From the NCBI GenBank assembly GCA_964610025.1, contig CAZSTX010000001.1, positions 117,209 through 181,208 of the forward strand: a DNA stretch of 64,000 bases. Direction: 5' to 3'. The notes beneath the pieces are model-generated. The model saw only the letters and a list, made by a program, of their open reading frames with translations, was not told the DNA's origin and ran no database searches. The stretch comes from an uncultured Lentimicrobiaceae bacterium (GTDB lineage: Bacteria > Bacteroidota > Bacteroidia > Bacteroidales > WCHB1-69). The position numbers and the translations under genes were made by a program. Shown here piece by piece: positions 1,862 through 22,136 of the stretch. Positions within the stretch are counted from its first letter, which is position 1, and every line of letters starts with the position of its first letter.

Positions 1862-3862
1862 TTATGTTCCTTTATTTTTTTTCAATTCTTTTATTTCATC
1901 ACGCAAACGGGCAGCTTCGAGAAAATCTAAGGATTTAACAGCCATTTCCATTGCTTTTTCTTTTGACTTAATTAAATTATTCGTTTCTTTTACAGAAAGG
2001 TATTTTACCTTGCTTTCTTCAGCGGCTACTGGTGCATTGTTCGTATGAGTTACTGAATAAGTTTTGGTATTTTCTTTGCTTTGTAATGACTTGCGTGAAC
2101 GCTGAATAGTAGTAGGAGAGATGTTGTTTTTGATATTATAAGCAATTTGTTTTTCGCGTCTACGATTGGTTTCGTTGATTGTTTTTTGCATTGATTGTGT
2201 AATGGTATCGGCATAAAAAATTACTCTCCCATTAACGTTGCGTGCTGCTCTTCCGGCTGTTTGTGTTAATGAACGTTCAGAACGTAAGAAACCTTCTTTA
2301 TCAGCATCTAAAATAGCCACTAACGACACTTCAGGTAAATCAAGTCCTTCTCTAAGCAAATTTACACCAACTATTACATCAATAATTCCTTCACGCAAAT
2401 AATCGAGAATTTCAACACGTTCTAATGTATCTACATCAGAATGTATATATTGTGTCTTAACATCAATGCGTTTTAAATATTTGGTTAATTCTTCTGCCAT
2501 ACGCTTTGTAAGAGTTGTAACCAAAACACGTTCCCCTTGTTGTATCGTTTTGTCAATTTCTTCTAATAAATTATCAACCTGATTAATACAAGGTCTCACT
2601 TCTATAATAGGATCTAATAATCCTGTTGGTCTCACAATTTGTTCTACAATAGCGCCTTCTGATGCTTTAAGTTCAAAATCGGCAGGTGTAGCCGATATAT
2701 AAATCGTTTGCCCGATAATAGCTTGCACCTCTTCAAGACGTAATGGTCTATTATCTAATGCTGCTGGCAAACGGAAGCCATAGTTTACTAAATTTGTTTT
2801 TCTTGATTTATCGCCTGCATACATGCCTTTTAATTGTGGTATTGTAACATGACTTTCATCAACGACAAATATAAAATCTTTTGGAAAATAATCTAATAAA
2901 CAGAATGGACGCATTCCTGTTTCCCGTCTATCGAAATAGCGCGAATAATTTTCGATACCTGAACAATATCCTAATTCTTTTATCATTTCTATATCATAAA
3001 CAACTCTATCTTCTAATCGTTTAGCTTCTAAATGCTTGCCGATGCTTTTGAAATGATTTTTTTGTATCTCTAAATCTATTTGTATTTCTTTGATGGCTTC
3101 ATGAATAATATCTTGAGATGTAACAAAAATATTGGCTGGATATATTGTTATCTCATTTAAACTTTCTATTCTATGTCCATCAATGTCAATAGATTCAATT
3201 GTTTCGATGGCATCTCCCCAAAAAGTTAAACGATAAGCAATTTTACCATAAGCTGGGAAAATATCTACTATATCGCCTTTTACTCTAAATTTACCCCTTT
3301 CAATATTTCCTTCTATACGCGAATATAAACTACTTACAAATTTGTGTAATAATTGATTGCGATTTATTATTAAATCTTTATGTAAATGAATAGTGTTTTT
3401 TGCAAATTCTTCTGGATTACCTATTCCATAAATACATGAAACTGAAGATACTACTATAATGTCTTTTCGTCCTGAGAGTAGGGAAGATGTTGTGCTCAAT
3501 CGTAATCTTTCAATTTCTTCGTTGATAGAAAGATCTTTTTCTATATAAGTATTAGTAGATGGAATATATGCTTCTGGTTGATAATAATCGTAGTAAGACA
3601 CAAAATATTCTACTGCATTATCAGGAAAAAATTCTTTAAATTCACTGTATAATTGTGCAGCAAGCGTTTTATTGTGGCTTATGACTAATGCGGGACGTTT
3701 TACTTCTTTTAAAACATTGGCAATAGTAAATGTTTTTCCAGAGCCCGTTACCCCTAATAGTGTTTGATTTTTTACTCCTTGATTTAATGATTTTACAAGC
3801 TGTTCTATAGCTTCAGGCTGGTCGCCAGAAGGCGAAAAAGGAGCTTGCAATTGAAAATCCAT
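1862..3862 (-). CDS. uvrB: excinuclease ABC subunit B
   Basis: 666 aa. Walker A GVTGSGKT, helicase motifs, and the C-terminal UVR motif LEAARLRDEI. Confidence 0.95.
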   Translation of the reverse strand: MDFQLQAPFSPSGDQPEAIEQLVKSLNQGVKNQTLLGVTGSGKTFTIANVLKEVKRPALVISHNKTLAAQLYSEFKEFFPDNAVEYFVSYYDYYQPEAYIPSTNTYIEKDLSINEEIERLRLSTTSSLLSGRKDIIVVSSVSCIYGIGNPEEFAKNTIHLHKDLIINRNQLLHKFVSSLYSRIEGNIERGKFRVKGDIVDIFPAYGKIAYRLTFWGDAIETIESIDIDGHRIESLNEITIYPANIFVTSQDIIHEAIKEIQIDLEIQKNHFKSIGKHLEAKRLEDRVVYDIEMIKELGYCSGIENYSRYFDRRETGMRPFCLLDYFPKDFIFVVDESHVTIPQLKGMYAGDKSRKTNLVNYGFRLPAALDNRPLRLEEVQAIIGQTIYISATPADFELKASEGAIVEQIVRPTGLLDPIIEVRPCINQVDNLLEEIDKTIQQGERVLVTTLTKRMAEELTKYLKRIDVKTQYIHSDVDTLERVEILDYLREGIIDVIVGVNLLREGLDLPEVSLVAILDADKEGFLRSERSLTQTAGRAARNVNGRVIFYADTITQSMQKTINETNRRREKQIAYNIKNNISPTTIQRSRKSLQSKENTKTYSVTHTNNAPVAAEESKVKYLSVKETNNLIKSKEKAMEMAVKSLDFLEAARLRDEIKELKKNKGT

Positions 3863-3874
3863 AGGACATCTAAT

Positions 3875-4348
3875 TTATCGTAATCTTTCTGCTTCTTTTA
3901 TTTTTTTTTCGTCTTTTAAAATAAATTTATTAGCAAGAAAAAGAAAGGCAAGCGAGACAATAGATGTAATAGTCCACAGACTATAAACCAATTGATTGTT
4001 TTTCAATAAATATATTTTACTAAATAAATTATCAGGATAAACATAAAGTATGAGTAACAATAATATAAAATTAATGACAACACCTGCTACACATAATTTA
4101 GATTGTATTGTCCTATTTTTGTAGAGAAAAATAGTTATTAAACTTAATCCTGCAAGTATAATTTGCAAAATACCAATGTAATAAGTCGGCAATAAAACAT
4201 TGCCATTTTCAATGTTTTCATGTAAACTCCAAGATGTAAATACATATTGAGCATTATCGGTCGTAACGGTAGCAATAGGGGTAAAAATTCCTACAATTAA
4301 ACAAATAGCTGCTAATAAAAGTAATAGAGATTGAATGCGTTGTATCAT
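3875..4348 (-). CDS. DUF4293-like multi-pass membrane protein
   Basis: 157 aa with four or five hydrophobic segments. Resembles the small Bacteroidota membrane-protein family often found next to uvrB. Confidence 0.45.
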   Translation of the reverse strand: MIQRIQSLLLLLAAICLIVGIFTPIATVTTDNAQYVFTSWSLHENIENGNVLLPTYYIGILQIILAGLSLITIFLYKNRTIQSKLCVAGVVINFILLLLILYVYPDNLFSKIYLLKNNQLVYSLWTITSIVSLAFLFLANKFILKDEKKIKEAERLR

Positions 4349-4395
4349 ATTATAAATAATTATTAATTAATAGTATAAAAAAATAAAATTATATT

Positions 4396-4608
4396 TTAAA
4401 ATAATTCTAATTGATTTTTGAGTACTCCGTTTTCATTGTTTTTTTTAAGTTCCATATATTTAAGATTTAAATCAATAGAATCTTTGATGAATTTATTTAC
4501 TGTTATATTGTTTTTTTTAGCACATTGCTCAATAGATTTTCTTTTTTCTGCCGAAACTTTAAAGGTGTAGTGGTAAGTCCATTTATTAGTTTTTTTATCT
4601 TTTTGCAT
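4396..4608 (-). CDS. small hypothetical protein, possible ribbon-helix-helix fold
   Basis: 70-aa basic ORF 4 nt downstream of lpxC-fabZ. KRKSIEQCAKKNNITVNKFIKDSI resembles CopG/RHH-type segments. Confidence 0.3.
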   Translation of the reverse strand: MQKDKKTNKWTYHYTFKVSAEKRKSIEQCAKKNNITVNKFIKDSIDLNLKYMELKKNNENGVLKNQLELF

Positions 4609-4612
4609 ATGT

Positions 4613-5995
4613 TTATCCTTTTGTTATTTGTGCTAAAAAATCGCCTTCTGCCACTACTTTCTGATTTACATATGCTTTTCCTTTCATATGTGCTAACCCA
4701 CGGCGTATAGGCTCTAATAAAATCATTTCGTAAATCAATGTGTCTCCTGGCGATACTTTAGAACGAAATTTTACCTTGTCCATACTTAAGAAAAAAGTAA
4801 GATAGTTTTCAGGATCAGGAACCTGATTAAGCACTAAAATACCACCTGTTTGAGCCATACCCTCCACAATTAAAACGCCGGGCATTACAGGTTCTTGTGG
4901 AAAATGACCCGTGAAAAATTCTTCGTTAATAGTAGCATTTTTAACACCAACAACACGATTTGCTGTCAGTTCTATTATTTTATCTACTAATAAAAAAGGG
5001 AAACGATGTGGGAGTTTTTCTTTAATTCCTATACTATTAAAAATAGGTGGTTTATTAACATCAAAAACAACTTTACTTGCTTCTGCTTTTATTTTACTTA
5101 TCATCATACGTGCAAAGGCTGTATTGGTAGCATGCCCAGGATATTTTGCTATAATATGTGCTTTTAAATTATAGCCTATTAAGTTTAAATCGCCAATTAG
5201 GTCTAATAATTTATGCCGCGCTACTTCGTTGTCAAAATGTAATTTTATGTTATTTAATACGCCTGTATTTTCAACTTTAATATCATGGCGATTAAAGAAA
5301 GTGGCAATTTGTTGTATTTCTTTCTCTTCTAAAATATGATTGACATATACAATGGCATTTTCAACATCGCCTCCTTTAATCATATTTGCATTGATAAGAG
5401 GCAATATTTCATGTAAAAAACAAAAAGTACGAGCAGGTGCTATTTCTGTAGCAAAATCTTTAATGTTATTTAATTCTGCATGTTGTACACCTAATACTTT
5501 TGTTTTGTAGTCTGTTAAAACAGAAACTTTAAAGTTTTCAGAAGGAATAGCTATGATTTCAATATCACTGTTAGGATTTTTCCAAGTGATAACTTCTTTT
5601 AACTCAAATATTTTTTTATCAGCATCTTGTTCTAAAAGACCTGCCTGCTGAAATATTTTGACATACTCTATAGAACTGCCATCTATAATAGGGATTTCTT
5701 CACCGTTTAATTCTATTAATACATTGTCAATTTCAAGCCCTGCAAGTGCAGCCATTACGTGTTCAATGGTTCTAACAGTAGCTCCTTCTTTATTGCTAAT
5801 TACAGTACCACGAGTAGTTTCTATTACCAATTCAGCAGAAGCTAATATAAGATTATTTTCTTCTAAATCAGTTCTTTTAAAAACAATTCCATGGTTAACG
5901 TCAGCGGGTTGAAAAGTAACAGTAACGGCTTTCCCATTGTGTAAGCCTTTACCTTTTAGACTACAAGATTTTTTTATTGTGTATTGCTTACTCAT
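4613..5995 (-). CDS. lpxC/fabZ: bifunctional UDP-3-O-acyl-GlcNAc deacetylase / 3-hydroxyacyl-ACP dehydratase
   Basis: 460 aa. LpxC N-terminal part (TVRTIEHVMAAL, HATN) is fused to a FabZ hot-dog C-terminal part (FTGHFPQEPVMPGVL), the fusion typical of Bacteroidota. Confidence 0.9.
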   Translation of the reverse strand: MSKQYTIKKSCSLKGKGLHNGKAVTVTFQPADVNHGIVFKRTDLEENNLILASAELVIETTRGTVISNKEGATVRTIEHVMAALAGLEIDNVLIELNGEEIPIIDGSSIEYVKIFQQAGLLEQDADKKIFELKEVITWKNPNSDIEIIAIPSENFKVSVLTDYKTKVLGVQHAELNNIKDFATEIAPARTFCFLHEILPLINANMIKGGDVENAIVYVNHILEEKEIQQIATFFNRHDIKVENTGVLNNIKLHFDNEVARHKLLDLIGDLNLIGYNLKAHIIAKYPGHATNTAFARMMISKIKAEASKVVFDVNKPPIFNSIGIKEKLPHRFPFLLVDKIIELTANRVVGVKNATINEEFFTGHFPQEPVMPGVLIVEGMAQTGGILVLNQVPDPENYLTFFLSMDKVKFRSKVSPGDTLIYEMILLEPIRRGLAHMKGKAYVNQKVVAEGDFLAQITKG

Positions 5996-6161
5996 ATTAA
6001 AATGATTATTATGTTAAACATTACAAAAGTATAAAAAAACACACTCGTTTTTCATTATCTTCTATAAATTAATAAAAAATATTAGAAAATCCGAATAATA
6101 ACTTCTAAAATAAGTGTTGAAAATCGTTATTTCTTATTAAAAAGGATAAAAAAAAATATAG

Positions 6162-6169
6162 TATTTTTG
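6162..6169 (+). promoter_or_regulatory. -7 promoter box TATTTTTG
   Basis: TAnnTTTG match 20 nt upstream of the hutH ATG. Confidence 0.4.
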
Positions 6170-6188
6170 CAAAAAAATATAAGATATA

Positions 6189-7691
6189 ATGAAAGAACAT
6201 AAGATATCAGATAAGCGTTTGAAATTAGCGACAGTAGATAAAATAATAAACGAAAATTATAAGTTAGCTTTGTCAGTTGAAGCAGTAAAAAAAATAGAAA
6301 AATGCCGCAATTATTTAGATGATAAAATAAAAAAACAAAAACGTCCTATTTATGGCATTACTACTGGTTTTGGCTCCTTATGTAATACTACTATTTCAGA
6401 AAATGAATTAGGAAAACTACAAGAAAATCTTATGGCTTCTCATGCTTGTGGAGTAGGAGATGAAGTGCCATTAGAGATTGTTCGTTTAATGATTTTATTG
6501 AAAATACAATCTTTGTCTTATGGACATTCTGGTGTGCAATTGTCTACAGTTCAACGATTAATAGATATATATAACAATGAAATCTATCCCATTGTGTACG
6601 AACAAGGTTCTTTGGGTGCATCGGGCGATTTAGTGCCTTTAGCACATCTTTGCTTACCTTTGATTAATTTAGGAGAAGTTTATTATAAAGGCGAAAAGTT
6701 AACGGGCAAAGAAATTAATGAAAAAATGAATTGGCAGCCTATTTCATTAAAATCAAAAGAAGGCTTGGCTTTATTAAATGGAACACAATTTATGTCTGCT
6801 TATTCCGTCTATATATTATTGAAAGCTAAAAGACTATCTTATGTTGCAGATTTGATAGGAAGTATTTCACTCGATGCTTTTAATGGTAGATTAGAACCTT
6901 TTTTAACAGAAGTACATATTATTAGACCACATTGGGGACAATTAGAAACAGCCAATAATATATTAAATTTTTTAGATGGTTCTGAAATTAGTTTGCAAGA
7001 TAAAGCACACGTACAAGACCCTTATTCTTTTAGATGTATGCCACAAGTGCATGGTGCTAGCAAAGATGCAATAAATTATGTTGAATTTGTTATAGAAACC
7101 GAAATTAATTCTGTTACTGATAATCCTACTATTTTTCCAGATGAAGATTTAGTGATTTCATCCGGTAATTTTCATGGACAGCCTATTGCCTTAGCGATAG
7201 ATTTTCTTGCTATTGCTTTAGCAGAATTAGGAAATATTTCAGAAAGAAGAACATATCAATTGATTGATGCTAAACGAGATTTGCCATCTTTTTTGGTTAA
7301 AAATCCAGGCTTAAATTCTGGTTTTATGATTCCTCAATATGCTGCTGCTTCTATTGTTAATCAAAATAAATTATTAGCAAATCCCTCTTCTACCGATTCT
7401 ATTGTGTCTTCACAAGGGCAAGAAGACCATGTTAGTATGGGAGCAAATGCAACAATTAAATGTTTGAAAATAGTTGAAAATTTAGAAAAAATATTTGGAA
7501 TAGAGTTTTTTAATGCTGCACAAGCTTTAGAATTTAGAAAACCTTTAAAAACTTCTCAAAAAATAGAAGAAATATTAATTGCGTATCGTGAAAATATTCC
7601 ATTTATCGAAAATGATACCACTATGTATGACAAAATGCAAAAAAGTATTGAGTTTATAAAAGATTTAGAAATGCTTTTTCGCTTCGAATAA
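6189..7691 (+). CDS. hutH: histidine ammonia-lyase
   Basis: 500 aa. MIO-forming ASG triad in GSLGASGDLVPLAH. The Ser-His selectivity pair in LMASHACGVG fits HAL rather than TAL/PAL. Confidence 0.85.
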   Translation: MKEHKISDKRLKLATVDKIINENYKLALSVEAVKKIEKCRNYLDDKIKKQKRPIYGITTGFGSLCNTTISENELGKLQENLMASHACGVGDEVPLEIVRLMILLKIQSLSYGHSGVQLSTVQRLIDIYNNEIYPIVYEQGSLGASGDLVPLAHLCLPLINLGEVYYKGEKLTGKEINEKMNWQPISLKSKEGLALLNGTQFMSAYSVYILLKAKRLSYVADLIGSISLDAFNGRLEPFLTEVHIIRPHWGQLETANNILNFLDGSEISLQDKAHVQDPYSFRCMPQVHGASKDAINYVEFVIETEINSVTDNPTIFPDEDLVISSGNFHGQPIALAIDFLAIALAELGNISERRTYQLIDAKRDLPSFLVKNPGLNSGFMIPQYAAASIVNQNKLLANPSSTDSIVSSQGQEDHVSMGANATIKCLKIVENLEKIFGIEFFNAAQALEFRKPLKTSQKIEEILIAYRENIPFIENDTTMYDKMQKSIEFIKDLEMLFRFE

Positions 7692-7774
7692 GCAACAAAA
7701 TGAAAATTATTTCCTTAATATACAATGAAATAAAAAAAAAATAAAAAAAAGTGTGTTTTTTGAAAAAAAAATTA

Positions 7775-7782
7775 TATTTTTG
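7775..7782 (+). promoter_or_regulatory. -7 promoter box TATTTTTG
   Basis: TAnnTTTG match upstream of the sigma-factor gene. Confidence 0.3.
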
Positions 7783-7868
7783 CGTCTACAAATACAAGGA
7801 GGATTTATATAGAAACAATTTTTATTTTTTGAGATTAAAAAAAAACGAAAATTAAACAAAAGTTTATT

Positions 7869-8462
7869 ATGAAGACTAAATTGTTTCAAAGCAGTGATGA
7901 AAATCTAGTTTCTCTTTATATTAACGGTCAAGAATCAGCTATAGAGATTTTAATTAAACGCTATCAACAAAAAATATTTTCTTATATTTTAATGGTTGTG
8001 CGAGATAAAGAAATTGCAGAAGATCTTTTTCAAGATACTTTTATAAAAGTAATCAATACTTTACGATTAGGAAATTATCGTGAAGAAGGAAAGTTTAATC
8101 AGTGGATTATGCGTATTACACGTAATCTAATTATTGATTATTTTCGTAAAAATCAGAAAATGTCTTTTGTAGATAATAATAATGAGAATGGTAGTTTTAT
8201 TGATAATTTTTCAGAACCTACTAATTCTATAGAACAAATAATGATAACAAATCAAATTCATGAGTCATTACGTTCTTTAATTACTCTTCTGCCTGAGAAA
8301 CAACAAGAAGTTTTAATGCTACGATTATATCAAGATATGAGTTTTAAAGAAATTGCTATTCAAACTAATGTAAGTATTAATACTGCTTTAGGACGTATGC
8401 GATACGCTATTTTGAATTTAAGAAAAATGGTGGAAGAAAATAATATAATTTTAACGCAATAA
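7869..8462 (+). CDS. RNA polymerase sigma-70 family (ECF-type) sigma factor
   Basis: 197 aa. Region 2 (DLFQDTFIKV ... WIMRITRNLIIDYFRK) and a region 4 HTH (MSFKEIAIQTNVSINTALGRMRYA). Confidence 0.8.
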   Translation: MKTKLFQSSDENLVSLYINGQESAIEILIKRYQQKIFSYILMVVRDKEIAEDLFQDTFIKVINTLRLGNYREEGKFNQWIMRITRNLIIDYFRKNQKMSFVDNNNENGSFIDNFSEPTNSIEQIMITNQIHESLRSLITLLPEKQQEVLMLRLYQDMSFKEIAIQTNVSINTALGRMRYAILNLRKMVEENNIILTQ

Positions 8463-8573
8463 TCTTCTGAAAAAACATTAAACTACTATATAGTTAAACT
8501 TTCGATATCCAATAAATAATAATTTTTTTTTTGAAAATATCTATAAATAATTGATTTATATAAAATAAAATTG

Positions 8574-8581
8574 TACTTTTG
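8574..8581 (+). promoter_or_regulatory. -7 promoter box TACTTTTG
   Basis: TAnnTTTG match 37 nt upstream of the rplS ATG. Confidence 0.4.
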
Positions 8582-8617
8582 CACGCAATATTTAAAAAAT
8601 CTTAATATTAAGAAATA

Positions 8618-8971
8618 ATGAAATCGGAATTAATAAAATTCGCTGAAGACCAATTGATTGAAAAGAAAAATCACCCTGAATTTAAAGCAGGAGATACCGT
8701 AACTGTAAACTATAGAATTGTTGAAGGAAGTAAAGAAAGAATCCAATCATACCAAGGAGTTGTTATTCAACGAGCTGGTACGGCGGCTACAGAAACATTT
8801 ACAGTTAGAAAAATATCTGGTGGTATTGGTGTCGAAAGAATATTTCCTGTTAATTCTCCTTTTATAGATAGTATTATTGTAAATAAAAGAGGAATAGTAA
8901 GAAGAGCAAGAATATTTTATTTAAGGGCATTAAGAGGTAAAAAAGCACGTATCAAAGAAAGAAGAAATTAA
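8618..8971 (+). CDS. rplS: 50S ribosomal protein L19
   Basis: 117 aa. [29 protein letters not shown] is typical of L19. Confidence 0.95.
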
Positions 8972-8996
8972 TTTTTTTTCTTAAATTATTATTATT

Positions 8997-9563
8997 ATGG
9001 CTACAACAGCAGATTTTAGAAATGGTTTATGTATCGAACTAAACGGAGAGCTTTGGAGTATTGCAGAGTTTTTGCATGTTAAACCAGGAAAAGGTGCTGC
9101 GTTTGTTCGTACTAAATTGAAAAATCTTCGAAATGGACGACAGTTAGAACATACTTTTCCTTCAGGAGTGAAAATAAATTTAGCAAGAGTAGAAAGACGA
9201 CCCTATCAATTTTTGTATAAAGAAGGTGCAACTAATTACCATTTTATGCACTCTGAAACATTCGAACAAATAGAAATTGAAGAAAGTTTAATCTCAAATT
9301 CAGGTTTATTAAAAGAAGGACAAGTAGTTGAAATAATGTATCATGTAGATACAGATTCACCTTTAACATGCGAACTACCTGCATTTGTTGACTTGCAAGT
9401 AACCTATACAGAACCAGGAGTGAAAGGCGATACTGCAACTAATGCCTTAAAAAAAGCAATTGTAGAAACAGGAGCGGAAGTAATGATACCTCTTTTTATT
9501 GAAGAAGGAGAAAAAATTAAAGTAGATACGCGTACAAATCGCTATTCGGAACGTGTCAAATAA
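8997..9563 (+). CDS. efp: elongation factor P
   Basis: 188 aa. [18 protein letters not shown] is the EF-P signature region. Confidence 0.95.
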
Positions 9564-9581
9564 ATAGATTGATAGAATATT

Positions 9582-10538
9582 ATGAAATTTAACAATCCAT
9601 TATCAACAGACGACTTACTGCAAATCATAGGCAATAATGTGAAAATTATTGGCGATAGAAATTTGAAAATTAGAGGTATTAACGAAATACATGGTGTTGA
9701 AGAAGGTGATATTACTTTTGTCGACCATCCTAAATATTATGAAAAAGCGCTTAAATGCAAAGCCGATTTTGTAATTATTGATATAGAGCCAGAAGATACG
9801 TTCGGAAAAACATTATTTATATCTGACGATCCTTTTAGAGATTATGTTAAAATTGTAAAACATTTTAGAATATTTATTCCACAAGATAGTTTTATTCATC
9901 AAGAAGCTGAAATAGGAGAAGGAACTGTCTTACAACCAGGTGTTTTTGTTGGACGTAATGTGAAAATTGGGAAAAATTGTATTATTCATTCTAACGTAAG
10001 CATTTATGACCATACTACTATTGGCGATAATGTTATTATTCAATCTAATAGTGTTATTGGTGGCGAAGCATTTTATTTTAAACGTCGCCCCGATTGCTGG
10101 GATAAATTAGAATCTTGTGGTAGTACGTATATAGGTGATAATGTAGAAATAGGTGCTTTATGTACTATCGATAAAGGCGTTTCGTCTGAAACTTACATTG
10201 GTAATGGTACAAAAATGGATAATCATATCCAAATAGGACACGACACAAGGATAGGAAAAAATGTGTTAATAGGAGCGCATTGTGCTATTGCTGGAGTGGT
10301 TGTTATTGAAGATAATTGCTTGATATGGTCTAAAGTATCTATTAATAAAGATTTAGTTGTAGCACGCGGCACTACTATTTTGGCTACCTCTGCCATTGCT
10401 AAAAGTACTCTGCCAAATCAAATACTTTTTGGAGCTCCTGCCATCGATTTTCGTAAAAAATGGAGAGAAATGGCTGCAGTACGCATGCTGCCCGATATTC
10501 TTGATGACTTAATAGAAGTAAAATCAAATATGAAATAA
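9582..10538 (+). CDS. lpxD: UDP-3-O-(3-hydroxyacyl)glucosamine N-acyltransferase
   Basis: 318 aa. LpxD N-terminal domain followed by hexapeptide (LbH) repeats, with a catalytic-type HIQIGHD segment. Confidence 0.85.
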   Translation: MKFNNPLSTDDLLQIIGNNVKIIGDRNLKIRGINEIHGVEEGDITFVDHPKYYEKALKCKADFVIIDIEPEDTFGKTLFISDDPFRDYVKIVKHFRIFIPQDSFIHQEAEIGEGTVLQPGVFVGRNVKIGKNCIIHSNVSIYDHTTIGDNVIIQSNSVIGGEAFYFKRRPDCWDKLESCGSTYIGDNVEIGALCTIDKGVSSETYIGNGTKMDNHIQIGHDTRIGKNVLIGAHCAIAGVVVIEDNCLIWSKVSINKDLVVARGTTILATSAIAKSTLPNQILFGAPAIDFRKKWREMAAVRMLPDILDDLIEVKSNMK

Positions 10539-10549
10539 TAAAAAAACGC

Positions 10550-11428
10550 TTATACGTTTTCTTTATTACACTTATTTAAATGATATTCTGCCAAAGCATC
10601 AATAGGATAGCGTACTATATTATTAATGACTAAACCTTTTTCTTTACCAACTACTTTTAAAATATCCTTTAGCAAAGCAGCTATAGAACCTACAAAATTA
10701 ATCGGGTAAAATTTACTTTCAGGATAGGGTAGGACAAATTCATCAAAAAATGCATGAAATGAATCAGATACAATATTTAACATACTTTCATCTTGAACAT
10801 TATCTATTACAAATGAAGCAAAGCTAGCTATAAAAACACCAGGCTTTTCTTTTTGATAAAGATGATTTAAAATATCTAAAGATGATAAATTATATTTACT
10901 ATTAAAAGCATCTAAAAGATGCATAGGTAGCTTGTTTTTTAAAAATAATTGCAATAAGCCTTTTCCTAAATGCGAACCACTGCCTTCGTCTCCTAACATA
11001 TAGCCTAAAGAAGGTAATGTTTTTATAATGCTTTTTCCATCATAAACACATGAATTAGAACCTGTTCCTAAAATACACGCTACTCCCATATCGTCTCCAC
11101 AGCAAGCTATAGCCGATGCCAACGTATCATGCTCCACAATAATGGCTGCATTTTGAAATATCATTTTTAAAGAAGAAGCAATTATTTCTTTTTTATTATC
11201 TGTAGAACATCCTGACCCATAAAAATAAATACGCAATACTTTGTCTAATGTAGTATATTTCAAAATAATAGGAAGTACCATTTGAGCAATGACTGTAGTA
11301 ATTTCTTCTTTACTTACATGGAAAGGATTAAGTCCATTTGTATCTGTTTGAGAAATAATAGTTTTAAGAGTAGGGGATAGTAATCTCCAATTGGTAGAAG
11401 TTGAACCGCTTTCTGCAATTAATATCAT
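10550..11428 (-). CDS. BadF/BadG/BcrA/BcrD-type ATPase (N-acetylglucosamine kinase-like)
   Basis: 292 aa. N-terminal IAESGSTSTNWRL and ILGTGSN actin-fold ATPase motifs. Confidence 0.6.
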   Translation of the reverse strand: MILIAESGSTSTNWRLLSPTLKTIISQTDTNGLNPFHVSKEEITTVIAQMVLPIILKYTTLDKVLRIYFYGSGCSTDNKKEIIASSLKMIFQNAAIIVEHDTLASAIACCGDDMGVACILGTGSNSCVYDGKSIIKTLPSLGYMLGDEGSGSHLGKGLLQLFLKNKLPMHLLDAFNSKYNLSSLDILNHLYQKEKPGVFIASFASFVIDNVQDESMLNIVSDSFHAFFDEFVLPYPESKFYPINFVGSIAALLKDILKVVGKEKGLVINNIVRYPIDALAEYHLNKCNKENV

Positions 11429-11490
11429 TTGCTTTTTTTTTTACAAAATTACACTATAATTTTTAATATTAATATAAAAAAATAATAATT

Positions 11491-11928
11491 TTTACAATAA
11501 AAAGATGTAAATTTAAAAAGATTTTATGTAAATTATTATGTAAACCTGAATGTAAATAATAAAAGAAGTAAGTAAATTTACGTAAATTACAATAGGATTG
11601 TATTGTAAATCATTGAAATTTAAAGGGAACAAGCTTAAAATAAAGCAAAAATTTTATTATATAGATTGATTTACAATTTATTATATAGGGTAATTAAAGT
11701 AATAGTAGAATAATTAATATGTAAATAATACTATATTGATAAAATACCCTAATAATTTTATTACTCGCTTGTATTTCAATATATATACTAATTTATTTAA
11801 AGTAATAGATGAAAGTTATTTAGTAAATTTATGTAATTTTACATGTAAATTGTTAAAATTTAAAAAACTTATTATTATTATTATTATTTTTGCAAGTAAA
11901 TGTAAATTAATATTTCATGAATGTAAAC
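11491..11928. repeat. array of about 13 direct NGTAAA(T/C) / ATGTAAAT repeats plus inverted copies
   Basis: Direct copies start at 11506, 11527, 11539, 11551, 11571, 11581, 11604, 11720, 11822, 11844, 11895, 11901 and 11922. Inverted copies are at 11491 and 11669. Palindrome GTAAATTTAC at 11572-11581. Confidence 0.7.
11885..11892 (+). promoter_or_regulatory. -7 promoter box TATTTTTG overlapping a (TTA)6 repeat
   Basis: TAnnTTTG match 45 nt upstream of the ATG at 11937. The (TTA)6 tract at 11869-11886 runs into it. Confidence 0.35.
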
Positions 11929-11936
11929 ATTAAAAT

Positions 11937-12365
11937 ATGCGAGAAAGAATATTAAAAATTTTGGAAGACAAAAATTTAAATCAAGCAGAGTTTGCCGAAA
12001 TAATTGGAGTAAATCCTTCAAGTATTAGTCATATTATGAATGGTAGGGATAAATTTAGCCAAACAATTGCATCTAATACACTATTGAAATTCCCTGAAAT
12101 CAATCCTTTATGGTTTTTAAAAGGAGAAGGAGAAATGTATAAAAATAAAATAAGTAATGAATATTTAAAAAACGAAGAACAATCACGTATTGAAGGAGAA
12201 TCGAATATTCGCCCAACAAATTATACTGACACGACAATAAACGATGTTAGCGATTTAAATAAAAGCAAGCAGATGCCGCCTATTACTGATGCAAATAATA
12301 AAAAAATAGAAAAAATTGTTTTCTTTTATTCTAATCAGACATTTGAAGAATATTATCCAAAATAA
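11937..12365 (+). CDS. XRE/phage CI-like helix-turn-helix transcriptional regulator
   Basis: 142 aa. N-terminal HTH (LNQAEFAEIIGVNPSSISHIMNGR) followed by INPLWFLKGEGEM, a motif typical of CI-repressor-type HTH proteins in Bacteroidota. Confidence 0.7.
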   Translation: MRERILKILEDKNLNQAEFAEIIGVNPSSISHIMNGRDKFSQTIASNTLLKFPEINPLWFLKGEGEMYKNKISNEYLKNEEQSRIEGESNIRPTNYTDTTINDVSDLNKSKQMPPITDANNKKIEKIVFFYSNQTFEEYYPK

Positions 12366-14084: not shown

Positions 14085-14158
14085 GGCTCCGTAGTTCAGC
14101 TGAATAGAACGTCAGATTCCGGTTCTGAAAGTCAAGGGTTTGAATCCCTTCGGAGTCG
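14085..14158 (+). tRNA. tRNA-Arg (anticodon CCG)
   Basis: Hand-folded cloverleaf. Acceptor GGCTCCG/CGGAGTC (one G-U pair), D arm GTTC/GAAC, anticodon stem TCAGA/TCTGA with loop TTCCGGT, T arm AAGGG-TTTGAAT-CCCTT. 74 nt. Confidence 0.85.
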
Positions 14159-14173
14159 CTAATATTCATTAAA

Positions 14174-14725
14174 ATGACAGTTAGACATTCTTTTTTTAAT
14201 TCCATAGACGCTTCGTGGACATTATTTCTTGATAGAGATGGAGTGATAAACAAACGTATTCACAATGCTTATGTACGAAATGTTGAAGAGTTTGAATTGT
14301 TACCCAATAGTAAAATGGCATTTTCTATTTTTCGTCAACTATTTTCAACCATTATAATTGTAAGCAATCAGCAAGGAATAGGAAAAGGAATTATGACAGA
14401 AGATGATTTGCTAATAATTCATAATCATATGCAAAATGAACTGAATCATTGTATTGATAAAATATATTATGCCCCAGGATTAGAAGGCGAAAACAATATA
14501 TTAAGAAAGCCAAATATTGGTATGGCTTTGCAAGCAAAAAAAGATTTTCCAACAATTGATTTTGCAAAATCTATTATGGTAGGCGATACTTATAACGATA
14601 TTATTTTTGGTAAAAACCTTGGAATGAAAACAGTTTTAATAGCTGAAAATAAAAATGATATAGAAGCAGATGTGCAATTTAAATCTTTGTATTCCTTTGC
14701 ATTAAAACTTAAGAAAGTCGAATAA
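14174..14725 (+). CDS. gmhB: D-glycero-D-manno-heptose 1,7-bisphosphate phosphatase (HAD-IIIA)
   Basis: 183 aa. LFLDRDGVIN (DxDG motif), NQQGIG, RKPNIGM and MVGDTYNDI HAD motifs. Confidence 0.75.
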   Translation: MTVRHSFFNSIDASWTLFLDRDGVINKRIHNAYVRNVEEFELLPNSKMAFSIFRQLFSTIIIVSNQQGIGKGIMTEDDLLIIHNHMQNELNHCIDKIYYAPGLEGENNILRKPNIGMALQAKKDFPTIDFAKSIMVGDTYNDIIFGKNLGMKTVLIAENKNDIEADVQFKSLYSFALKLKKVE

Positions 14726-14797
14726 TTATTTGACTTTTTCTCCTTTATATAAATCGAACTGTTGAATGTTTTCTATTTGTTTTTGATAACTTAAATA
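14539..14797. repeat. direct repeat R, copy 1 (gmhB 3' end plus last 72 nt of the transglycosylase gene)
   Basis: Identical by eye to 17131-17389 (offset 2592). Confidence 0.9.
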
Positions 14798-14846
14798 GCT
14801 ACTCCTTACCAATCAAAAATCGTATCTATTTTATAAAAAAAATCAA

Positions 14847-15290
14847 ATGATTTACAAATTAAAAAAAACAAAATTTTTATTAGTGAGCGTATCTCTTTTT
14901 ATCTTCGGTTGTTCAAATAAAAATGACATTGATAATATTGTTTCTACCGAATATGATAGATGTAAGGAAAATACAAATTGTCTCATAGATTTTGCTCATT
15001 TAATGAATTTTGAGTGGGATACTATGTGTTATTATTCAGGAGCTAATTCATTAGAAGAAATTAACAAAGATTTAGGTTTTGAATTAAGAGATTTTACAGA
15101 TATTGGAGATCGAGTAATATTTTTTCACAAAGGGAAAATTATTTATCAAAAAGAATGGTTTTATAATCCAAGTGAACCGCCCAAAGGAATAATTTTTATG
15201 ACTGATTTAGATAAGTTTAGAATAAGTAAATCAAACGCAAAATTTGAAGCAAGAAAAGAAGGAAATGCTTTTTATTTAATAAAAATTTAA
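14847..15290 (+). CDS. lipoprotein, candidate orphan immunity protein
   Basis: 147 aa with lipobox LFIFGC. First gene of the insertion. No motif recognised, so the immunity role is inferred from context only. Confidence 0.4.
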   Translation: MIYKLKKTKFLLVSVSLFIFGCSNKNDIDNIVSTEYDRCKENTNCLIDFAHLMNFEWDTMCYYSGANSLEEINKDLGFELRDFTDIGDRVIFFHKGKIIYQKEWFYNPSEPPKGIIFMTDLDKFRISKSNAKFEARKEGNAFYLIKI

Positions 15291-15337
15291 GCAACGCAAC
15301 TAACGCCATAAAAAAAAACTTAATAAAAACAAAAAAC

Positions 15338-15463
15338 AACCAAAAAAAAGTATACATTTGCAAAATGAAAAACTACAACACACACACGGGAAGCACAAAA
15401 CCTCTACTCATCAGTAGAGCGTTAAAGCAGTGTGCTGTGGCAAGGCAAGGGATTGCCAGCAAA
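15338..15463 (+). repeat. toxin cassette head, copy 1 (27 nt upstream plus codons 1-33)
   Basis: About 88% identical (15 mismatches in 126 nt by hand count) to 17005-17130. Confidence 0.8.
15353..15360 (+). promoter_or_regulatory. -7 promoter box TACATTTG, 4 nt before the ATG
   Basis: TAnnTTTG match conserved in both head copies. Spacing implies a very short or absent leader. Confidence 0.4.
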
Positions 15464-16516
15464 ATAGGCAGCGGATTTGCCGATTCTATCAGTGGCGGAA
15501 TAGTTGATAATGCGTATAAAATTACAGTTATGCAAAATGAACTCAGCGAAGTAGCCAATGACTTGATAGACACTATCCATTGCAACTTTACGCAGATACG
15601 CTATTTGGGCGGAGATTCCTGCAAGTATGAGAGTGGTTTGTATTTTTATCATGGTAACCATTTGAGCAGCACCCAACTTATTACCGACATTAACGGCTCT
15701 GTAACGCAGGCGGTTCTTTACAATCCTTGGGGTACGATAATAAGCGAATATAGAGCAGATTGGATGTTAGATACCATACCGAGATATTTATTCAACGCTA
15801 AAGAAAAAGACGAAGAATCAGGGCTTTACTATTTTGAAGCACGTTACTATAGTTCAGATGCTGGAACTTTCCAAAGCCGAGACCCAAAATTTGAACAATA
15901 TTTTTGGTTGTCGCCCTATGCGTATTGTGCGAATAATCCGGTGGTTTTTGTAGATCCGGATGGGAGGAAGATAGTATTTGCAAAAGGAACGACTCCAGAA
16001 TTTAAAACTGCTTTTAAATCAGCTATACAACATTTGAATAAAAATAAAGTAGGGGGTATTGCTTCACATTTGGAAAAATCAAGAACTACATATTATATTG
16101 CTGAAACAACAGGCGAAGACACTCGTTTTAGCCCTTCAACACAGACAGTTTATTGGAATCCATCTCTTGGACTTGAAACAGATGAAGGAGTTACTTTATC
16201 CCCAACAACTGCATTAAATCACGAATTAGGACATGCTTTAATACTGGATTTATCTTTTGAGGCAGGCAAAATGAAAGAATATAATGCAGAACGAAATAGT
16301 GGTTCTGACCCTGATTATGGAACAAAAAATGAAAGATATGTAATTACTCGTATCGAACAAATAACGGCAAAGGCTTTGGGCGAAATAAAAGATGGTCAGG
16401 TTACACGAAAAAATCATGGAGGGATTTTTATTGAAACAGAAAGCCCCACTTCTAATCAACCAAAAATGCAACAAATTGAATTGCAACCAGTAGAAAATTT
16501 TTCAGAGCCAGAATAA
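15365..16516 (+). CDS. RHS repeat-associated core-end protein with C-terminal HExxH metallopeptidase toxin domain
   Basis: 383 aa. YFYHGNHLSSTQLITD, LYNPWG, GLYYFEARYYSSDAGTFQSRDP, SPYAYCANNPVVFVDPDG (15953-15964 = DPDG), then HELGH at 16220-16234. Confidence 0.8.
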   Translation: MKNYNTHTGSTKPLLISRALKQCAVARQGIASKIGSGFADSISGGIVDNAYKITVMQNELSEVANDLIDTIHCNFTQIRYLGGDSCKYESGLYFYHGNHLSSTQLITDINGSVTQAVLYNPWGTIISEYRADWMLDTIPRYLFNAKEKDEESGLYYFEARYYSSDAGTFQSRDPKFEQYFWLSPYAYCANNPVVFVDPDGRKIVFAKGTTPEFKTAFKSAIQHLNKNKVGGIASHLEKSRTTYYIAETTGEDTRFSPSTQTVYWNPSLGLETDEGVTLSPTTALNHELGHALILDLSFEAGKMKEYNAERNSGSDPDYGTKNERYVITRIEQITAKALGEIKDGQVTRKNHGGIFIETESPTSNQPKMQQIELQPVENFSEPE

Positions 16517-16530
16517 TAAAAAATGAAAAT

Positions 16531-16965
16531 ATGAAAAAGATAGGTGTTAATTTGATTTTGTTGATTTTACTGAAAGCATCAATTGGATTTTCTCAGAATA
16601 GTATTATTATTCGATATGTAGATACTGAAATTCAAACTCCTATACGTATAACGGGTTATCTTTTTAGTAGTGGGTGGAAATTTGAAGAATTTGAAGTAAA
16701 AGATACCATTTTTTACAAATTTATACAACAAAGAATAGATTCAGTCAAATATTGTCGTGATAATATTCAATGTCGTTGTCCAGATGTTAGGCAACAAATT
16801 ATTGTTACTAATGGAGAAGAATATGATATTCTTTCTTCTGATGGAAGTTTTGCGATGGAAATAAATGGGAAATGTATATTTTTTGATGAACGATTGCAAA
16901 AAGCCATAAATCGGGTTATTGAAACTTATGAGAATAAAAAAGAAGACAATCTACAAAGGAAATAA
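16531..16965 (+). CDS. exported small protein, candidate cognate immunity protein
   Basis: 144 aa. Signal peptide MKKIGVNLILLILLKASIGFSQ. Starts 15 nt after the toxin stop. Role inferred from position. Confidence 0.45.
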   Translation: MKKIGVNLILLILLKASIGFSQNSIIIRYVDTEIQTPIRITGYLFSSGWKFEEFEVKDTIFYKFIQQRIDSVKYCRDNIQCRCPDVRQQIIVTNGEEYDILSSDGSFAMEINGKCIFFDERLQKAINRVIETYENKKEDNLQRK

Positions 16966-17004
16966 CAGATATGTGGATTTTTATTGTATAAAATACCCCC
17001 CTAA

Positions 17005-17130
17005 AACCAAAAAAAATTATACATTTGCAAAATGAAAAACTACAGCACACACACGGGAAACACAAAACCTCTACCAAAGAGTAGGGCGGTAGAAAAGTGT
17101 GCTGCGGTAAGGCAAGGGATTGCCAGCAAG
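17005..17130 (+). repeat. toxin cassette head, copy 2
   Basis: Homologous to 15338-15463. Includes TACATTTG at 17020-17027 and an ATG at 17032. Confidence 0.8.
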
Positions 17131-17151
17131 AAAAGATTTTCCAACAATTGA
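17032..17151 (+). pseudogene. truncated second toxin module (head only, 39 codons)
   Basis: MKNYSTHTGNTKPLPKSRAVEKCAAVRQGIASK then runs out of frame into the gmhB repeat and stops at 17149-17151. Confidence 0.7.
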
Positions 17152-17317
17152 TTTTGCAAAATCTATTATGGTAGGCGATACTTATAACGATATTATTTTT
17201 GGTAAAAACCTTGGAATGAAAACAGTTTTAATAGCTGAAAATAAAAATGATATAGAAGCAGATGTGCAATTTAAATCTTTGTATTCCTTTGCATTAAAAC
17301 TTAAGAAAGTCGAATAA
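17131..17317 (+). pseudogene. duplicated 3' fragment of gmhB (last ~62 codons)
   Basis: Encodes KDFPTIDFAKSIMVGDTYNDI...KLKKVE, identical to the GmhB C-terminus. It lacks the catalytic DxD N-terminus. The ORF-track entry 17120-17317 uses a fortuitous TTG. Confidence 0.85.
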
Positions 17318-17389
17318 TTATTTGACTTTTTCTCCTTTATATAAATCGAACTGTTGAATGTTTTCTATTTGTTTTTGATAACTTAAATA
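17131..17389. repeat. direct repeat R, copy 2
   Basis: Identical by eye to 14539-14797. Confidence 0.9.
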
Positions 17390-18310
17390 AGCTATTTCAG
17401 GAATGCTTATCTCATAAGTTTTTGCACTTTTATTGTACAATGAGTTGCTGCGTAACCATGGGTTAAAGTCTTTGAGTGTTTTGTAGTCAATCCCTTGTAA
17501 AATAGCAAAATCAACAAGATTACTAATGCTTGTATCCACTTTTACTTTATGGCAAGGAATAGGCTGGTATAAGTCTTTGTATCTAAGTTTTATTCCATAT
17601 TTTTCAGGATTTTCGAAAAGTAGTTTAACGGCTAATATACGGTAAACATAGCGAGCAGTTTCCATAGTAAGCATTAAATTCCAATAAGAAGATGTTTTTT
17701 GTGATGCAACACTACGTTTAAAGCCACCATCGCCCATATTATAAGCTGCTGCTGCTGATATCCATGACCCATGTAAAGCGTAAGATTTTTTTAAATATTC
17801 GCAAGCTGCTTTGGTCGATTTTTCTAAATGATAACGCTCATCAACATCGTTATTGATTTCTAAACCAAAACTTTCGCCTGTAGCTTTTAAAAACTGCCAA
17901 AAACCTACTGCATTTGATGGCGATACTACATTGGCAAGCCCACTTTCTATTACAGCAAGGTACTTAAAATCGTTGGGAATATTGTTTTCTTTTAATATAG
18001 GTTCAATGATGGGAAAATAACGATTAGCGCGTTTAAAGTAAAGTAAAAGATTTGATTGCCAATAAACATTCACTAATATTTCTCTGTCTAATGCTTCTCT
18101 AACATCGTATTTATCTAATGGAATAAATTCGTTAGCTAAAAAAAGAGTATCGGGTAGAGGAGGAGAGTGCAAGATATACGACATAGTAAATGTTTGTTGA
18201 TAATCTTTGTCGTCTATTTTTTTTTCAACAGTTTGAGCTATCAATAATAATCCAATAATAACAGTAAAAAAAAGACTAATAATTACTATATAAATAGATT
18301 TTGTTTTCAT
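17318..18310 (-). CDS. lytic transglycosylase domain protein (MltD-like)
   Basis: 330 aa. N-terminal membrane anchor and the SLT motif AVIESGLANVVSPSNAVGFWQF ... AAYNMG. Confidence 0.8.
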   Translation of the reverse strand: MKTKSIYIVIISLFFTVIIGLLLIAQTVEKKIDDKDYQQTFTMSYILHSPPLPDTLFLANEFIPLDKYDVREALDREILVNVYWQSNLLLYFKRANRYFPIIEPILKENNIPNDFKYLAVIESGLANVVSPSNAVGFWQFLKATGESFGLEINNDVDERYHLEKSTKAACEYLKKSYALHGSWISAAAAYNMGDGGFKRSVASQKTSSYWNLMLTMETARYVYRILAVKLLFENPEKYGIKLRYKDLYQPIPCHKVKVDTSISNLVDFAILQGIDYKTLKDFNPWLRSNSLYNKSAKTYEISIPEIAYLSYQKQIENIQQFDLYKGEKVK

Positions 18311-21895: not shown

Positions 21896-22136
21896 TTTTT
21901 TTTGTGCAAAATTACATTATTTAACTTCTCTTTAATAATAAAAATTGCATTAATTTGATAAAAAGAATAGAATGTTAAAATCTTTAACATTAAACGAGTT
22001 GGTTGTTTTTGTATTTTAGTATAATAGAAAAAGAACTAAATATTTATTATTTTTTGTGCAATGATATTTTTATTTAATAATAAATATCACAGACTAACGT
22101 TTGGTATATAGTTAATTTAAAAAAAAGCGATTGATA

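Follow-up and report, generated by a model that had tools for sequence, protein, structure and literature searches.

A repeated promoter-like head on truncated Rhs cassettes, in a probable captured array fragment between convergent gmhB-like and lytic transglycosylase genes of an uncultured Bacteroidales bacterium

Introduction

A short sequence that opens one toxin-like gene and recurs, cut off, some distance downstream raises two questions, namely what the repeated sequence does and how the DNA that carries it came to lie where it is. Such a locus is found in a stretch of 64,000 nucleotides (nt) of contig CAZSTX010000001.1 from an uncultured Lentimicrobiaceae bacterium (Bacteroidales), hereafter the window, in which an island with an Rhs-type open reading frame (ORF) of 383 amino acids (aa) lies between the convergent genes of a gmhB-like phosphatase and a lytic transglycosylase (SLT). 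The repeated element, here called the head, comprises an A-run, a TAnnTTTG box and the first 33 codons of the ORF, and its second copy is fused to a gmhB fragment at the right end of the island. An initial annotation had taken the head as a promoter-plus-start module through which autonomous toxin cassettes exchange, and the fusion as the product of illegitimate recombination. The reading that we consider likely is that the island is a fragment captured from an Rhs cassette array, that the head is the promoter and start leader of the cassettes of this lineage, and that its second copy is truncated.

In Salmonella, the C-terminal toxins (CTs) of both main and orphan Rhs proteins owe their transcription to promoters within the conserved core, show low-level translation and behave as type II toxin-antitoxin systems, and these modules discourage loss of the locus by repeat recombination (PMC7043789). 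In Bacteroidales, the rAID-1 clusters consist of a 5′ gene for a XerD-like tyrosine recombinase followed by at least two co-oriented genes of low GC content (Ross et al., 2019, bioRxiv 10.1101/471110).

Results

The head is a two-copy sequence that lies largely outside the Rhs core

Repeat detection and alignment delimited a 125-nt head at 15338-15462 (copy 1) and 17005-17129 (copy 2) with 89% identity, and a recount over 126 nt returned the 15 mismatches given in the initial annotation. Its other details were recovered as well: 24 of the 33 residues are identical between the head peptides MKNYNTHTGSTKPLLISRALKQCAVARQGIASK (copy 1) and MKNYSTHTGNTKPLPKSRAVEKCAAVRQGIASK (copy 2), both copies carry TACATTTG with 4 nt between the end of the box and the ATG, the similarity sets in abruptly at AACCAAAAAAAA in both, and the ORF list places the stop of the fused frame at 17149-17151. 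Head substrings of 26 nt and 21 nt occur exactly twice each in the window, where shuffled sequences are expected to hold none.

The promoter and the ATG would have been fortuitous if the head were an internal piece of longer Rhs genes. It proved not to be one, except for its final 12 nt (ATTGCCAGCAAA, encoding IASK), where homology to the core of longer Rhs proteins has already set in (the DNA at this boundary reads ATTGCCAGCAAAATAGG). Longer homologues that extend across the boundary (...NQNGEYTKHYYADAARIASKIGSGF..., ...YTKHYYADAARIASKIGSGF and ...NQNGEYTKHYYADAARIASKIGSGFADSISGG...) match from IASK onward only, and therefore the 29 preceding head codons are not Rhs core. An origin of the head as frameshifted Rhs core was considered and rejected, the core-like DNA being limited to ATTGCCAGCAAA and possibly GCAG..TGCTG just upstream. 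The apparent 3′ limit of the head is an artefact of the copy-2 breakpoint. A hairpin, GGCAA-GGGA-TTGCC, is located at 15446-15459 and 17113-17126, directly 5′ of the head/core boundary and of the head-2/gmhB junction, respectively, and might, or might not, have a part in breakage or template switching.

Because the head peptide is weakly constrained (a ratio of nonsynonymous to synonymous substitution rates, dN/dS, of ~0.65, from 4 synonymous and 10 non-synonymous changes, 14 in all) and the first 40 nt, which span the A-run, the box, the ATG and four codons, hold a single difference, a promoter/start signal appears favoured over a functional peptide; the pattern of conservation would fit a signal at the DNA level better.

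The promoter-like box and the near-leaderless start recur with other heads

TAnnTTTG is the published −7 consensus of the primary sigma factor of Bacteroidetes (sigma-ABfr, with TTTG at −33) (PMC7366714), and TACATTTG conforms to it at 15353-15360 and 17020-17027. As the box ends only 4 nt before the ATG, a leaderless mRNA or one with a leader of 1-3 nt would be implied. The same start, TAnnTTTGCAnA-ATG-AAAAAY with the same 4-nt spacing, was found at cassettes that carry different heads. In L009, a JGI metagenome contig with two cassettes, the head is MKNDIGHRGID... and the start is GTACTTTTGCAAAATGAAAAAT, and in L006 and L010, which are contigs from NCBI metagenomes or metagenome-assembled genomes (MAGs), a third head, MKNCSNH.TTVFVAEKESF, follows the start TGTATTTTTGCACAATGAAAAAT. 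All three head families have the box ending 4 nt before the ATG and the ORF opening with ATG-AAA-AAY, and across 148 kb of scanned DNA the pattern TAnnTTTGCAnAAn(G)AAAAA was met at cassette 5′ ends and at one ordinary gene promoter only. Since this layout recurs in other head families and in other organisms, the promoter/start arrangement described in the initial annotation is, as far as sequence can tell, not fortuitous, and it supports a conserved promoter with a near-leaderless start, which would presumably be active.

The shared layout extends in part to a fourth head in L006 (four copies, TATTTTTGCAAAACAAAAACTACTT...ATGAAC), which has TTTGCAAAA.AAAAACTAC in common with the window head but a downstream ATG. 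These copies, at 11459-11547, 12063-12151, 6967 and 8575, consist of a box, ATGAAC... and a GC-rich hairpin (CCAAGTCTCCCCA...TGGGGAGATTTAGAGGGG); two of the four are fused in frame to Rhs core at LYAPFGE, and the remaining two are not fused and lie on either side of a DUF559/Vsr-like endonuclease gene at the array end. In L010, the head-core join falls exactly inside the half-hairpin CCCTCTAAATC.

Within the window, the extended string TAnnTTTGCAAA is also located 5′ of ordinary genes, at 6162 and 38795. Boxes of the form TAnnTTTGCA(A/C)AA stand upstream of ordinary gene starts at 21914 (minus strand) and at the same two positions, and the form looks like a local promoter consensus of the organism. 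A scan for E. coli-type sigma-70 promoters and terminators, which is unsuited to Bacteroidetes, showed no enrichment over shuffles.

The head is carried by few proteins with different C-termini

The 383-aa protein, designated P0001 in the homologue comparisons, has 273 Rhs homologues, most of which are short metagenomic proteins (250-600 aa) of the "RHS repeat-associated" type. The head was found on two of them, P0005 and P0008, both NCBI-derived, which share with P0001 the head and ~170 aa of Rhs core and are unrelated to it after DP(D/T)G, and these three are the only full proteins with the head in public data. P0016 has no head, shares the core with P0001 from IASK on, aligns up to DP(D/T)G and is unrelated afterwards. 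P0005 and P0008 thus bear out the proposal that cassettes differing in their C-terminal toxins carry the head.

When 1.84 billion representative proteins were searched exhaustively with a profile, P0001 and P0005 alone had the full head. None of the GTDB species representatives, JGI metagenomes, viral contigs or plasmids contained it, and the exact DNA pattern of box and start gave 0 matches in GTDB species representatives. Degenerate head-peptide patterns gave 88 matches in genome contigs, 153 in JGI metagenome contigs and 49 in viral contigs, and tblastn confirmed none of them. Therefore, the head is not widespread, and the full head is a very narrow, lineage-specific sequence; the copies elsewhere that the initial annotation had proposed to look for do exist on P0005 and P0008, but not in the GTDB species representatives or JGI metagenomes.

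Other recurrent non-core N-termini were seen on short Rhs-CT proteins, namely MKNE(T/I)GH(W/R)GIDRGLSKLGE... and MGCIKLDILDEQY(R/K)K.E.K...., with varied points of joining to the core (for example in P0036, P0052, P0082, P0088, P0094 and P0099, and in P0097, P0100, P0103, P0110 and P0111). Alternative heads therefore appear to be general among these metagenomic Rhs fragments.

The island is an insertion flanked by a 258-nt direct repeat

The nearest relatives that the searches returned, uncultured Bacteroidales contigs, encode SLT proteins with 83% and 70% identity to that of the window. They keep the gene order HTH-SpoU-OMP-gmhB-SLT-ABC-F, with gmhB and SLT convergent, and in them the 3′ ends of these two genes abut without any insert. 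When the insert X and one copy of the flanking repeat R are deleted, the window is colinear with the relative L001 across 1013 columns at 79% identity with 1 gap, and therefore X is an insertion. R is an exact direct repeat of 258 nt (14540-14797 and 17132-17389, 100% identical, start-to-start spacing 2592 nt) that takes in the final 186 nt of the gmhB-like gene, the palindrome at the stop codons and, from the convergent SLT gene, the final 72 nt, and both host genes have remained intact after the duplication, gmhB through R1 and SLT through R2. As the copies of R are identical, the event is either recent or the copies have been homogenised.

At the right junction, TTGCCAGCAAGAA and the gmhB sequence TTGCAAGCAAAAA agree at 11 of 13 positions, as the initial annotation had counted. 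A random pair of 13-mers from the window reaches 11/13 with P = 8e-5, and among the 13-mers of the window, agreement with the patch at 11 or more positions is confined to the gmhB site, head 1 and head 2 itself. A three-way comparison of the junction, gmhB and head 1 places the crossover within GCAAGA/AAAGA, and for the G at 17130 the best explanation is a synonymous AAG lysine codon in the donor. The left join offers GCTA at most, with a 1-nt offset. The patch, the repeat R and the colinearity with L001 together support the claim that the truncated head 2 was joined to gmhB at a short imperfect homology by illegitimate recombination.

A 24-nt near-palindrome, AAAGTCGAATAATTATTTGACTTT, lies across the abutting stop codons of gmhB and SLT at 14714-14737 and, duplicated with R, at 17306-17329. 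It may be a bidirectional terminator, and the copy at 17306-17329 would be the sole barrier between a head-2 transcript and antisense SLT.

The island holds one complete cassette between two apparently incomplete ones

The features of the island and its borders are collected in Table 1. The 383-aa ORF matches Rhs_assc_core (TIGR03696) at aa 119-200 with 66.5 bits against a cut-off of 32.5, which places it in the Rhs family, and the conserved part ends with DPDG at aa 197-200 (...NNPVVFVDPDGRK, aa 190-202), in the cleavage-site motif PxxxxDPxG. The C-terminal domain contains NHELGH, an HExxH motif, and gives a sub-threshold match to Peptidase_M91 (PF14891; E = 0.0012, 19.7 bits against a cut-off of 25), a family to which some homologues have a precomputed assignment. 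The ORF does not encode a full-length Rhs/YD-repeat toxin, a type that has a YD-repeat shell of >1000 aa and an N-terminal delivery domain (PAAR or similar): no RHS_repeat Pfam match was obtained, and the NCBIfam RHS_core model aligned over its last 106 positions only, with 29 bits against a cut-off of 2000. With a conserved N-terminal part, a variable C-terminus after DPxG and a small downstream ORF, the locus has the layout of a polymorphic toxin cassette. The small ORF of 144 aa has no match in Pfam or NCBIfam and is presumed, from its position, to be the cognate immunity gene.

Upstream of this cassette, the frame ATPYQSKIVSIL ends in a stop codon that precedes the next ATG by 10 nt, an arrangement shared with the toxin/immunity pairs of L006, and is the probable remainder, 12 codons long, of an upstream toxin gene; the 147-aa lipoprotein-like ORF that follows, likewise without a Pfam or NCBIfam match, is probably the immunity gene of that missing cassette. 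Because the left end of X appears to lie inside coding sequence, the island looks like a random fragment from the interior of an array of orphan Rhs cassettes and not like modules mobilised at head boundaries.

Neither a full-length rhs gene nor an obvious secretion system is present in the window: the longest ORF has 1042 aa, the two ORFs above 900 aa encode an AcrB-type transporter and a protein with a PD-(D/E)XK nuclease domain, and the large ORFs are otherwise housekeeping genes. The ORF list, Pfam and NCBIfam revealed no recombinase, replication or transposase gene in or beside the island, no plasmid matched the insert and no viral sequence matched the head, so that a mobile element is not supported. 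Apart from its promoter/start and insertion features, the locus is an ordinary polymorphic-toxin island.

Table 1. Coordinates of the island, its flanking repeats and the host genes in the window
Feature	Position	Strand	Remarks
gmhB-like HAD-IIIA phosphatase gene, 183 aa	14174-14725	+	intact; last 186 nt within R1; Pfam HAD matches
gmhB side of the right-junction microhomology (TTGCAAGCAAAAA)	14528-14540		
R1, 258 nt	14540-14797		gmhB 3′ end, stop-codon palindrome, dead copy of the last 72 nt of SLT
Insert X, 2334 nt	14798-17131	+	missing at the syntenic convergent gmhB/SLT junction of relatives L001-L005
Probable tail of upstream toxin gene, ATPYQSKIVSIL (12 codons and stop)	14798-14836	+	frame open to the left junction and cut there
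Lipoprotein-like ORF, 147 aa, probable immunity gene	14847-15290	+	LFIFGCS lipobox; followed by the spacer motif, as are the L006/L009 immunity genes
Inter-cassette spacer motif GCAACTAACGCCATAAAA and A-run	15296-15319	+	identical 18-mer in L006 at 6914
Head copy 1	15338-15463	+	A-run, TACATTTG box (15353-15360), ATG at 15365, 29 non-Rhs codons, and IASK as the opening of the Rhs core
Complete cassette ORF, 383 aa	15365-16516	+	head, truncated Rhs core, putative C-terminal toxin with HExxH
ORF of 144 aa, presumed immunity gene	16531-16965	+	hydrophobic N-terminus; begins 15 nt after the toxin stop codon
Head copy 2, cut after codon 33	17005-17131	+	box at 17020-17027; 89% identical to head 1
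Fused ORF, 39 aa (...IASKKRFSNN and stop)	17032-17151	+	head-2 codons continue out of frame into the gmhB fragment
Right-junction patch (TTGCCAGCAAGAA), derived from Rhs core (IASK)	17120-17132		core origin seen in L006 copies, ATTGCCAG(C/T)AAAATAGG
R2, 258 nt	17132-17389		dead gmhB 3′ fragment (186 nt) and functional SLT 3′ end
Lytic transglycosylase (SLT) gene	17318-18310	-	intact, convergent; Pfam SLT E = 1.1e-19; last 24 codons in R2

The genes 5′ of the island (HTH, SpoU methylase, OMP beta-barrel, tRNA-Arg and gmhB-like) are the same as in the insert-free relatives. The tRNA-Arg(CCG) gene at 14085-14159, just upstream of the gmhB-like gene, was considered as the insertion point and rejected, being 640 nt away from the left junction. 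The phosphatase scores above the NCBIfam cut-offs of the HAD-IIIA model TIGR01662 (88.4 against 44.6) and the histidinol-phosphatase-domain model TIGR01656 (105.4 against 84.15) and under those of the equivalogs for GmhB (D,D-heptose 1,7-bisphosphate phosphatase), TIGR00213 (76.2 against 149.6) and NF006506 (103 against 178), and "gmhB-like HAD-IIIA phosphatase" seems a safe name. The window has a GC content of 29.6%, and the Rhs-core segment (15400-16000) reaches 41-42%, compared with 26-30% in its flanks, which could reflect either foreign origin or amino-acid constraint.

Related arrays share a spacer motif, and two show no full-length rhs gene nearby

In L006, from a metagenome assembly, a 4HBT thioesterase gene and recJ enclose five cassette/immunity pairs in a row (3229-11417), and L010, a MAG, has a single cassette (10001-11880) at the same RNR-4HBT...RecJ locus. 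No full-length rhs gene was found in L006 or L010 within up to 10 kb on each side of the query gene, and shell-less cassettes with their own start therefore seem to be the rule in these lineages. In the DNA examined, neither a recombinase nor an integrase gene lies beside the island or beside the L006, L009 and L010 arrays. Integron-type gene cassettes, by comparison, have an attC-like structured site at the cassette 3′ end and go with an integrase and attI.

The spacer of the window recurs in these arrays: the identical 18-mer GCAACTAACGCCATAAAA is present in L006 at 6914-6931, and variants are located at 11426-11450 in L006 and at 166-190, 1789-1815 and 3425-3450 in L009. The motif, GCAA(A/C)TAACG(C/T)C(G/A)TAAAA followed by an A-run, directly follows the immunity genes, once overlapping the end of one, in arrays of different organisms. 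By eye, it resembles the coding sequence of the Rhs core end (GCn AAT AAT CCn GTA AAA, ANNPVK) at 14-15 of 20 positions, and could either be left over from displaced core ends or serve as a signal of the cassette boundary.

Discussion

Based on these findings, the head is best read, from sequence comparison, as the promoter/start leader that shell-less Rhs cassettes carry in one narrow Bacteroidales lineage, and as one of a broader set of heads with the same box-to-ATG layout. It would be the normal 5′ end of the lineage's cassettes, in which a Bacteroidetes −7 type box (TAnnTTTG) is followed after 4 nt by the ATG, and ~29 poorly constrained codons would replace the missing Rhs shell and be spliced to the core at ...IASKIGSGF. 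Its probable job would be to provide each shell-less cassette with its own near-leaderless transcript and start, and the immunity gene and an unsecreted toxin could thereby be expressed without a full-length rhs gene. The toxin/immunity pair could then act as a toxin-antitoxin or addiction module that stabilises the insert against deletion through the 258-nt repeats; the functions of toxin and immunity protein and the addiction role are read from the layout. Copy 2 would be a dead-end remnant and, if its promoter fires, would yield a 39-aa nonsense peptide and an antisense read into SLT.

In fork stalling and template switching/microhomology-mediated break-induced replication (FoSTeS/MMBIR), or in homology-facilitated illegitimate recombination, short imperfect homologies serve to join ectopic or foreign DNA, and the insert comes to be flanked on either side by a copy of some target sequence. 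The island resembles such insertions in its short-homology join and its flanking target duplication, with the difference that here only the right junction can be scored and the mechanism is one that we infer. X would have been captured from an array of truncated Rhs-core/C-terminal-toxin genes, each followed by an immunity gene, and would have landed at the abutting 3′ ends of the convergent gmhB-like/SLT pair. Its breakpoints would be arbitrary in coding sequence, running from 12 codons before one toxin stop to codon 33 of the next-but-one cassette, and both joins would be illegitimate, the right one at a 13-nt imperfect homology between Rhs core (ATTGCCAGCAAG) and gmhB. The most likely route would be a template switch during replication or repair that left the chromosome at 14797 for the array and re-entered at ~14528-14540, 258 nt behind its exit, with microhomology at each step, and the 258-nt target duplication made in the same event would have kept both host genes intact; homology-facilitated illegitimate recombination of incoming DNA is an alternative route. 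RecA-type recombination between the copies of R would delete the island precisely, and an expressed toxin/immunity pair could counter-select such loss, by analogy with Salmonella (PMC7043789).

Several observations weigh against this account. Bare TAnnTTTG is near chance in the AT-rich window (124 matches, with ~103 expected from composition), no TTTG is found near −33, the 40 nt upstream of either box being A-rich, and 5′ untranslated regions shorter than 10 nt are rare in Bacteroides thetaiotaomicron (~3.7%; PMC7366714). The heads thus resemble sigma-ABfr promoters in TACATTTG and differ from them in having no −33 TTTG and in a box only 4 nt before the ATG. Starts with MKN or MKK are generic, and the shared 5′ string could be partly convergent; the upstream box in P0005 and P0008 rests on the over-extended ORF of P0005 (KKVYICK-M). 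The family match of the toxin is sub-threshold, the 383-aa ORF has no sequence relative in the PDB, and the immunity roles of the 147-aa and 144-aa ORFs are guesses from position. The donor array was not found, which puts the homology at the left junction and a copy-paste origin beyond scoring, and the source is a draft or metagenome-type assembly, the duplication being known from the assembled sequence alone.

This last point bears on a different history, in which a 2592-nt circle made up of X and one R was integrated by Campbell-type homologous recombination at R, or in which the assembler threaded a free circle into the chromosome. A single crossover predicts just such copies of R, 100% identical over 258 nt, and a de Bruijn graph built from the chromosome and a circle does not differ in its edges from that of the integrated form, in a contig that comes from a draft assembly. 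However, the circle would itself need both illegitimate joins between X and R, and with them an earlier integrated or template-switched form, and X carries no gene for replication or mobilisation and matches no plasmid, phage or viral sequence; we therefore hold the circle to be unlikely. Far less credit can be given to the model of the initial annotation, in which the head serves specifically for exchange and autonomous toxin modules are reshuffled within the array at the edges of the head. In its favour, three cassettes that differ in their C-terminal toxin carry the conserved head, the similarity sets in sharply on the upstream side, and the part with the promoter and the ATG hardly varies (1 mismatch in the first 40 nt). 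Yet the ~500 nt of Rhs core after the head are equally conserved in the head-bearing proteins, so that the head adds little homology, and recombination in the head would not separate toxin from core. P0005 and P0008, which share the head together with ~170 aa of core and diverge from P0001 only after DPxG, speak against cassette exchange through the head in place of the core: the core is the longest shared block of homology, and therefore the classical exchange through it is still available. The 3′ limit of copy 2 is a breakpoint with 12 nt of core in it, the other end of the insert is also apparently inside coding sequence, and the neighbouring genes are housekeeping genes, with no recombinase gene seen among them.

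Conservation of the head for reasons other than a promoter, as a structured RNA or DNA element (a 5′ leader or a hairpin recombination site) or as a secretion or adaptor peptide, is the least probable of the alternatives. Head 2 folds better than dinucleotide shuffles (z = -4.2) and head 1 weakly so (z = -1.7), the two-sequence consensus fold reaches z = -4.2 against column shuffles, and all 15 differences are compatible with it, including one double change from A-U to G-C; the GGCAA-GGGA-TTGCC hairpin stands just 5′ of the core junction and the gmhB junction, and other head families also end in a GC-rich hairpin just before the core junction. But random-substitution controls gave an equal consensus fold in 10% of cases and at least one "compensatory" pair in 34%, several head-2 changes break the minimum-energy fold of head 1, and Rfam had no match in the island or in the L006 array. 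The poor constraint on the peptide (dN/dS ~0.65), its want of a hydrophobic signal segment and its presence in only three full proteins also tell against the idea. A bolder interpretation, which we regard as doubtful, sees a distinct class of autonomous shell-less Rhs-CT/immunity cassettes in uncultured Bacteroidales, whose arrays without full-length rhs genes seed new chromosomal sites as self-expressing addiction units, with the head as the hallmark of the system. Its boundary element would consist of the spacer GCAA(A/C)TAACGCC(R)TAAAA, the A-run, the TAnnTTTG box and the near-leaderless ATG-AAA-AAY start. Orphan Rhs-CT/immunity modules with their own expression signals are already known, and the head is a variant of them.

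Among these, the closest precedent for a promoter/start leader on captured cassettes is the Salmonella orphan Rhs toxins expressed from internal promoters. The orphan rhs-CT/rhsI of Salmonella Typhimurium (Koskiniemi et al., 2014, PMC3967940; Starsta et al., 2020, PMC7043789) and the window cassette have in common a shell-less core end, a variable toxin after DPxG and a downstream immunity gene. The Salmonella orphans are transcribed independently of the full-length rhs gene and have been proposed as an addiction module, whereas the window cassette is known from its genetic layout alone. In Salmonella, the promoter and weak CTG/ATG starts are located inside the core, whereas in the window a head outside the core provides a Bacteroidetes-type box and an ATG. 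Moreover, the Salmonella orphan is directly downstream of the main rhs gene, whereas the window cassette lies between gmhB-like and SLT genes, with no full-length rhs gene in 64 kb, and is thus not a classical orphan, immediately 3′ of such a gene and homologous to its core. With the rAID-1 clusters, the locus shares the Bacteroidales host, the co-oriented toxin-immunity-related genes and the repetitive intergenic sequences, the spacers of window-type cassettes having motifs in common across organisms. It is unlike them in that no recombinase flanks the island, the genes upstream being those of the insert-free relatives, and in that each window-type cassette keeps its toxin.

Conclusion

The island offers a clean natural example of an insertion at a zero-length gap between two convergent genes, both of which were kept intact by a 258-nt duplication, and one of its junctions can be scored for microhomology. 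If the head is active, the truncated Rhs cassettes of these Bacteroidales would be independently expressed toxin/immunity pairs and not silent spare parts. The toxin-antitoxin behaviour found for the orphan Rhs modules of Salmonella would then extend to another phylum with a different promoter solution, and this would explain how such arrays persist without a delivery-competent rhs gene.

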